Shown here piece after piece: positions 5,362 to 6,058 of a DNA stretch of 6,058 nt. The notes beneath the pieces are model-generated. The model made no database searches. It saw only the letters and a program-made list of their open reading frames with translations, and was not told the DNA's origin. Position 1 is the stretch's first letter. Every line of letters starts with the position of its first letter. The translations under genes were made by a program, and so were the position numbers. Origin of the DNA: a virus (Duplodnaviria > Heunggongvirae > Uroviricota > Caudoviricetes); IMG/VR virus record IMGVR_UViG_2675903609_000008; one strand, given 5' to 3'.

Positions 5362-6015
5362 CTACGATAACCGCGCATTCAACATGGCTATCTGTTCGTC
5401 GTTCATGTCATCAATCCACATACCGTAAATTTCATACACCATTTGCGCAGTTTCATGCCCCATCTGGCTGGCTATAAATGCCGGGTTCGCTCCTGCCGTC
5501 AACAGCCAGCAGGCAAAAGTATGTCGCGTGTGGTACGGATTACGGCGGCGAATACCAGCACGTTTTACTGCTGCATTCCATCTTGTACCCAAACTGCTTA
5601 CCGAGTAATAAGGTTTCTGTTTTTCGTTACACACCCTGGGCATGAAAACAAAATGCAGTTTTTGTTTTTCAGTTCTGCCGTACTCCCGATGATAAAAAGT
5701 GATTTCGCTTTTGCGATGATGCCCGGTCAGTTTGTATTGCTCCTTCAGTGCTTCAAGAGCCGGCTGCAGTAATGTTACCGTCCGGATCCCGGCATTTGTT
5801 TTTGGGGGACCGAACATATCAAGTATCGTCAGGTTTCTTCTGACATTCACAATTCCCTTCTCGAAATCCACATCCTCCCACGCCAGAGCTGCCAGTTCCC
5901 CGTGACGAAGCCCGGAGTAAACGGCAAATTTCCACAAGTTTTGGCTCTGTCCTTTTTCACTTTCCATTAATGCATTGAATTCTGTTTTAGATAACGGGTC
6001 AGGTAATGCTGCCAA
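5362..6015 (-). CDS. Phage-type tyrosine integrase, C-terminal catalytic domain only (likely truncated or disrupted)
   Basis: 217-aa ORF with tyrosine-recombinase catalytic motifs: the conserved Arg in ...YSGLRHGELAAL..., the H-x-x-R box HTRHTFACWLL, and the tyrosine region ...AQMVYEIYGMW. Only about 35 residues precede the catalytic Arg. The ORF begins at a TTG, and an in-frame TAA lies at 6025-6027 on the minus strand, so the arm-binding and core-binding domains are absent in this frame. Confidence 0.8.
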   Translation of the reverse strand: MAALPDPLSKTEFNALMESEKGQSQNLWKFAVYSGLRHGELAALAWEDVDFEKGIVNVRRNLTILDMFGPPKTNAGIRTVTLLQPALEALKEQYKLTGHHRKSEITFYHREYGRTEKQKLHFVFMPRVCNEKQKPYYSVSSLGTRWNAAVKRAGIRRRNPYHTRHTFACWLLTAGANPAFIASQMGHETAQMVYEIYGMWIDDMNDEQIAMLNARLS

Positions 6016-6058
6016 CTTACTGATTTAGTGTATGATGGTGATTTTAAGGTGCTTGCGT

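Follow-up and report, generated by a model that had tools for sequence, protein, structure and literature searches.

The putative integrase gene at positions 5362-6015 of the window, by which we mean the whole 6,058-nt stretch of DNA analysed, is almost certainly a dead 3' fragment of intR, a non-functional pseudogene with an IS1 element at codon 199. The parent gene would have encoded a tyrosine integrase and have belonged to a Rac-like lambdoid prophage, one that carried sitABCD as cargo near its att site. An ORF is recognized here solely because IS1, at its outward-facing end, provides a TTG in the same frame, four codons ahead of the junction. Where the surrounding context has been preserved, IS1 has replaced approximately 422 bp of intR, comprising the last part of the arm-binding domain and all of the core-binding domain.

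The truncated ORF retains an integrase catalytic domain

The ORF list places this gene on the minus strand at 5362-6015, with 217 codons running from a TTG (6015-6013) to a TAG stop (5364-5362). A preliminary description of this DNA had the ORF start at a TTG about 35 residues before the catalytic arginine, with an in-frame stop just upstream at 6025-6027, and both observations hold: the arginine is residue 37, and a TAA lies three codons upstream of the TTG (6027-6025; read to the window edge, the frame gives RKHLKITIIH*ISKLAALPDPLSK...), though this TAA is part of IS1. In a Pfam profile search the 217-codon ORF matched PF00589 (Phage_integrase) with E = 4.6e-24 and 85.6 bits, against a cut-off of 27.1 bits, over ORF residues 11-197 and profile positions 6-165 of 172, which is far above chance level.

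Alignment to the solved Tn1549 Int paired R37, K72, R164, H187 and the nucleophile Y197 (Y391 of IntR) with the catalytic residues of that protein, and the residue set of the family (Arg I, Lys, box II Arg, His/Trp III and Tyr) is present in the ORF. Of the catalytic signature described previously, the arginine and the tyrosine region were located as claimed, but the supposed H-x-x-R box (residues 161-164) reads Y-H-T-R. The same alignment places a tyrosine in the canonical histidine column of box II (Y161-H162-T163-R164), a family trait and not damage, since intact IntR has identical residues there.

The ORF derives from a Rac-type intR gene

When 5150-6058 was searched by megablast against phages and complete E. 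coli genomes, the region separated into two unrelated parts. The intact reference gene was the 1236-nt intR of E. coli CFSAN029787, the product of which, IntR, is 411 aa in length. Window positions 5261-6003 matched the 3' part of this gene and the adjoining ttcA/att segment (L002) with 99.6% identity over 743 nt, and homology to intR ended at 6003. The 3' remnant therefore spans 5362-6003 on the minus strand and holds codons 199-411 together with the stop at 5362-5364, so that the whole catalytic domain is covered. Residues 5-217 of the ORF correspond to IntR 199-411, with 212 of the 213 positions identical and A338T as the sole substitution; at the nucleotide level the remnant differs from the intact allele at three positions, two of them synonymous and one non-synonymous. 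The ORF is a fusion in which IS1 supplies the first four codons (M-A-A-L); the fifth, a Pro codon with which the intR sequence proper starts, straddles the junction, and the remainder is IntR 200-411.

Profile matches to intact IntR comprised Arm-DNA-bind_2 (residues 5-69), weak SAM-like matches (82-139 and 83-187) and Phage_integrase (205-391). The arm-type DNA-binding domain is absent from the ORF, which begins at IntR 199, as is the core-binding (SAM-like) domain, both matches to which lie wholly inside the lost codons 58-198. The suggestion that the gene is a truncated remnant was thereby borne out, the ORF representing IntR 199-411 and the rest having been replaced by IS1. That the break at codon 199 falls just ahead of the catalytic domain is a coincidence, because the IS1A of E. 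coli MLI023K1 cuts intR elsewhere. As the catalytic residues are all intact and only one amino acid has changed, either the truncation would be recent or the fragment would not yet be decaying, and residual expression of the fragment could be envisaged on sequence alone.

Such expression is the premise of an alternative in which the ORF is a domesticated recombinase consisting of the catalytic domain only. The IS1-int fusion would be transcribed through read-out by IS1, and its translation would begin at the TTG or an internal ATG (M17), yielding a free-standing catalytic domain, for example one that interferes with incoming Rac-like phages or has a topoisomerase-like activity; were this true, it may have been kept in S. 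flexneri to hinder the integration or excision of such phages, or as a DNA nicking or relaxing enzyme. We regard this as very unlikely. The catalytic residues are intact, the frame is open over 217 codons, and the junction is common to several S. flexneri genomes, including those of G1663 and the serotype 5a strain M90T. However, with just three nucleotide differences from the intact allele an open frame is expected by time alone and carries no signal of selection, whilst clonal descent accounts for the shared junction and other strains cut intR at other positions. Promoter and terminator scans covered the window and the L004 copy of IS1 and revealed nothing that faces the ORF, outward promoter-like sites included; the sole site at the window end is inward-facing and within the left end of IS1, and no Shine-Dalgarno sequence was seen by eye before the TTG (upstream bases AATCAGTAAGTTG; AATCAGTAAG). 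Furthermore, isolated catalytic domains of lambda Int bind DNA and recombine very poorly.

The start of the ORF lies within an IS1 element

The second of the two parts distinguished by megablast, 6002-6058, belongs to a plus-strand IS1 of the IS1F type that continues past the window edge; it holds the left end of this element, with IRL and the first part of the insA leader, and has 57/57 identity to nt 1-57 of annotated IS1F. Two bases, 6002-6003 (CC on the minus strand), are ambiguous and may be assigned to either IS1 or intR. At the junction, intact intR reads ...AGAATAAAGCC/TGACCCG and the window ...GCATTACC/TGACCCG. With 6002-6058 identical to IS1F and no intR homology past 6003, it is IS1 that contributes the TTG, the four codons that begin the ORF and the TAA ahead of them; the apparent start (6013-6015) and stop (6025-6027) are both located inside the terminal inverted repeat.

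The exact 217-aa product was found by exact-sequence look-up on at least 19 contigs, including the finished chromosomes CP007037, CP034060 and CP037923, and an exact search with the 52-nt junction added two further complete chromosomes, CP178302 and CP182556 (S. flexneri SFBU1023 and 'E. coli' ECMA0423). The locus closest to the window was L011, with 99.98% identity over 1057-6058. In L004, L005, L006 and L014 the shared junction runs into a full 768-bp IS1 that is 99.3-99.5% identical to IS1F; the 768-bp element of the related loci carries InsA and DDE_Tnp_IS1 ORFs, and has the inverted repeat, length and insA/insB genes by which the IS1 family is recognized. No 9-bp target-site duplication was present around the IS1, as the flanks GTTCCGGTG and TGACCCGTT differ. 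Its absence is consistent with the identification of the element as IS1, and would point to an adjacent deletion or to recombination between elements.

Three loci had both a readable far side of the junction and the other half of intR, namely L004, L005 and L014 (S. flexneri CP007037 and CP034060, and E. coli ECMA0423). The order in each is a truncated xis, intR nt 1-172, the 768-bp IS1 and intR nt ~595-1236, such that ~422 bp of intR has been lost (codons ~58-198, ~141 codons), the position of the right junction being ambiguous by 2 nt. It had been proposed that the N-terminal part of the integrase might lie in another frame past the window edge, whereas in these loci the edge is followed by the remainder of IS1 and then by 57 intR codons; the 57-codon stub beyond the IS1 of L004 matched Arm-DNA-bind_2 at positions 1-53 of 65 only. 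The sequence of another locus, L015, stops inside IS1. In M90T (L006), an IS66-family element and an ipaH-type gene, DNA unrelated to intR, lie beyond the IS1, and the intR 5' fragment was not found within 10 kb, hence a further IS1-associated rearrangement has occurred there. For the window's own genome, the far side of IS1 is presumed from that of its relatives, among which M90T differs.

It is highly improbable that IS1 simply inserted into an otherwise complete intR, in which case precise excision could restore the gene. IS1 does separate two intR fragments in L004, L005 and L014, but the first fragment stops at nt 172 and the second does not start until nt ~595, the ~422 bp gone between them not being a multiple of three; with this loss, the differing 9-bp flanks and the missing 5' fragment of M90T, a simple insertion was refuted for the five long loci. 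The loss of ~422 bp without a target-site duplication is instead the signature of an adjacent deletion mediated by IS1 or of recombination between one IS1 copy and another, and we infer that one of these two events gave rise to the junction. Reconstitution of the integrase from the surviving intR pieces would, on this arrangement, be impossible.

The preliminary description had also raised the possibility that the integrase gene is contiguous and that the stop at 6025-6027 results from a nonsense mutation, a frameshift or an error in sequencing. An in-frame TAA is indeed present three codons upstream of the TTG, yet everything from 6002 onward, this TAA included, is 100% IS1F with no similarity to intR, so that what had been taken for a start and a stop is IS1 inverted-repeat sequence; nor was an uninterrupted integrase ORF of 350-420 aa, the outcome named earlier as indicative of a sequencing error, found in the extended sequence of related loci. 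We attach practically no probability to this explanation. Just as little can be given to an assembly artefact in which a repeat-collapsed IS1 was misjoined to int at a contig end, for although many ORF-bearing draft contigs (L007-L013) end in or near IS1, the identical junction occurs in the independently finished CP007037, CP034060 and CP037923, as well as in CP178302 and CP182556.

The adjacent excisionase gene is also truncated

A check for an adjacent xis gene, as had been recommended, revealed one beyond IS1, but it is 5'-truncated. In L004 the product is 55 aa in length compared with 71 aa for the intact protein, and matches the DUF1233 profile at positions 18-67 only; homology to xisR (within L004 8340-9073) starts 43 nt into the intact gene, and the truncated gene adjoins another transposase gene (rve domain). 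As xisR has been truncated at its 5' side by a second IS, the recombination module has been struck by at least two different insertion sequences.

Heterobivalent phage integrases, such as lambda Int and its relatives, need both arm-binding and core-binding domains to form the recombination complex. The product of the ORF, if made, would not be expected to recombine att sites, because the arm and core domains are absent, no promoter or ribosome binding site was found, and xis is truncated. Neither the intact excisionase nor the flanking attL and attR sites of a functional heterobivalent integrase were found with the remnant, xis being truncated and the att site of the attP type.

L004 and L006 each encode two IS1 copies in the same orientation (L004 9247-10014 and 18473-19240; L006 9247-10014 and 18484-19251), with ~8.5 kb between copies, which bracket the int remnant, attP, sitABCD and tail-fibre remnants. 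This layout resembles that of a composite transposon, and could allow sit to be deleted or mobilized via IS1 recombination.

An attP-like site joins the int remnant to sitABCD

Downstream of the int remnant, an approximate Rac-type att common core of ~43 bp was identified at 5261-5303, at which sit-side and int-side arms are joined in an attP-like manner. The Rac-like prophage of E. coli CFSAN029787 is ~48 kb in length, with intR at its ttcA end and sitABCD at its uspF end, just inside attR. The attL (int/ttcA) end of this prophage matches the window from 5261 upwards, whilst the attR (sitA/uspF) end of the same prophage matches window 4600-5303. Adjoining the core, 5102-5260 is phage-side arm DNA, as found beside the right end of Rac; such DNA adjoins int directly only where the phage is circular or arranged in tandem. 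Window 5102-6003 has a contiguous 96% match to E. coli Jnd12, in which tail fibre, pin and ydfK run straight into intR and xisR. The junction at 5261-5303 thus has the attP configuration that would be expected if the phage were circular, or where two prophage copies meet inside a tandem lysogen, from which it follows that the S. flexneri sit island would descend from such a circular-form or tandem-lysogen junction and not from a simple prophage end.

The sitABCD operon itself, which encodes an iron/manganese transporter, is intact at 1451-4900 on the minus strand (sitA 3986-4900, sitB 3159-3986, sitC 2305-3162 and sitD 1451-2308), as identified from the ORF list, Pfam searches of related loci and the RefSeq annotation of homologues. 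The remainder of the window consists of tail-fibre-assembly remnants and IS fragments alongside sitABCD. By comparison with the CFSAN029787 prophage, this arrangement marks sitABCD as phage cargo located between the tail-fibre genes and att.

Several other features of the window were noted. An 11-bp tandem repeat, AAGGGGCAAAA, is present in 2.3 copies at 5136-5160 in the int-sitA spacer. Measured between the stop of int and the start of sitA, this spacer is 431, 450, 461 or 472 nt long across S. flexneri assemblies, and BLAST alignments break at 5127/5140; the repeat, which is upstream of the sit promoter region, looks to be variable in copy number. A run of 112 Ns at 843-954 is situated inside a tail-fibre-assembly-like ORF (567-1250, plus strand); as homologous S. 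flexneri loci have just 52 nt there, these Ns stand either for masked sequence or for a gap whose length is arbitrary. The left end of the window, 1-448, is a patchwork of IS sequence, in which 1-58 matches the end of an IS3-family element (L004 19322-19379) and 58-448 matches an IS66-family element in its first ORF (L006 8490-8880); the 203-aa ORF at 67-678 is chimeric, beginning in this IS fragment and extending into phage tail DNA.

Comparison with related integrases, islands and plasmids

Among the closest known systems is the Rac IntR of E. coli, a 411-aa protein that integrates at ttcA, with which the remnant shares the att core and a ttcA-like segment downstream, and, in related loci, xisR upstream. 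In contrast to Rac IntR, the remnant is without residues 1-198 and sits in an attP-like junction by sitABCD instead of an attL by ttcA. Relative to insertion and adjacent deletion events of IS1 (IS1F subtype), the terminal 57 nt are the same, related loci have the full 768-bp element and the gene is truncated, but a 9-bp duplication is lacking, as would be expected of an IS1-mediated deletion or inter-IS1 recombination and not of a fresh insertion.

Other instances of int decay were apparent in E. coli. RefSeq pseudogenes annotated as 'tyrosine-type recombinase/integrase; incomplete; missing N-terminus' near ttcA or sitA have the same 5'-side truncation with other breakpoints. In MLI023K1 (L017 2102-3698), the IS1A truncates intR next to ttcA with 843 nt left, and in H22 (L016 4764-4994) a 231-nt int remnant adjoins sitA, the island being located beside uspF and ompN. 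As their breakpoints differ, the MLI023K1 and H22 truncations are independent events. An E. coli genome in which sitA, att and a full-length int are contiguous, as in an intact ancestor, was not found; the best case was the 231-nt remnant of H22, whilst Jnd12 has a contiguous attP-type arm and an intact intR but is without sit.

An origin from ColV-type sit plasmids was considered and rejected, since plasmid matches covered at most 43% of 4900-6058 and had IS1 by sitA with no int fragment. Many ColV-type plasmids of E. coli and Klebsiella have an IS1 end within ~350 bp of the sitA start, with the matched pieces averaging 86% identity to the window, a pattern which suggests a separate IS1-associated capture of sit.

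The exact 217-aa protein has been deposited as an 'integrase' in GenBank and UniRef from the S. flexneri strains G1663 and M90T (serotype 5a). The feature consists of an ordinary IS1 and a truncated member of the Rac IntR family, with nothing new in kind. In existing S. flexneri annotations, however, the 217-aa 'integrase' should read as an IS1-truncated intR pseudogene, the start codon of which is an artefact of the IS1 end.

Implications for the mobility of the sit island

According to a previous review, insertion sequences abound in PAI sit, which has also undergone many deletions and rearrangements, by homologous rather than site-specific recombination (PMC7545054). The island described by Fisher et al. 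(2009), as summarized in that article, likewise has sitABCD in lambdoid prophage remnants, and in the summary given there it does not differ substantively from the present locus. The earlier proposal of an immobilized island appears fair as regards the loss of self-encoded site-specific mobility: the sit island is probably no longer mobile by its own site-specific recombination, with its IS copies the likely route of further rearrangement. In practical terms, excision of the sit island by its own integrase is not to be expected and IS-mediated change is likely, which fits the published view of PAI sit.
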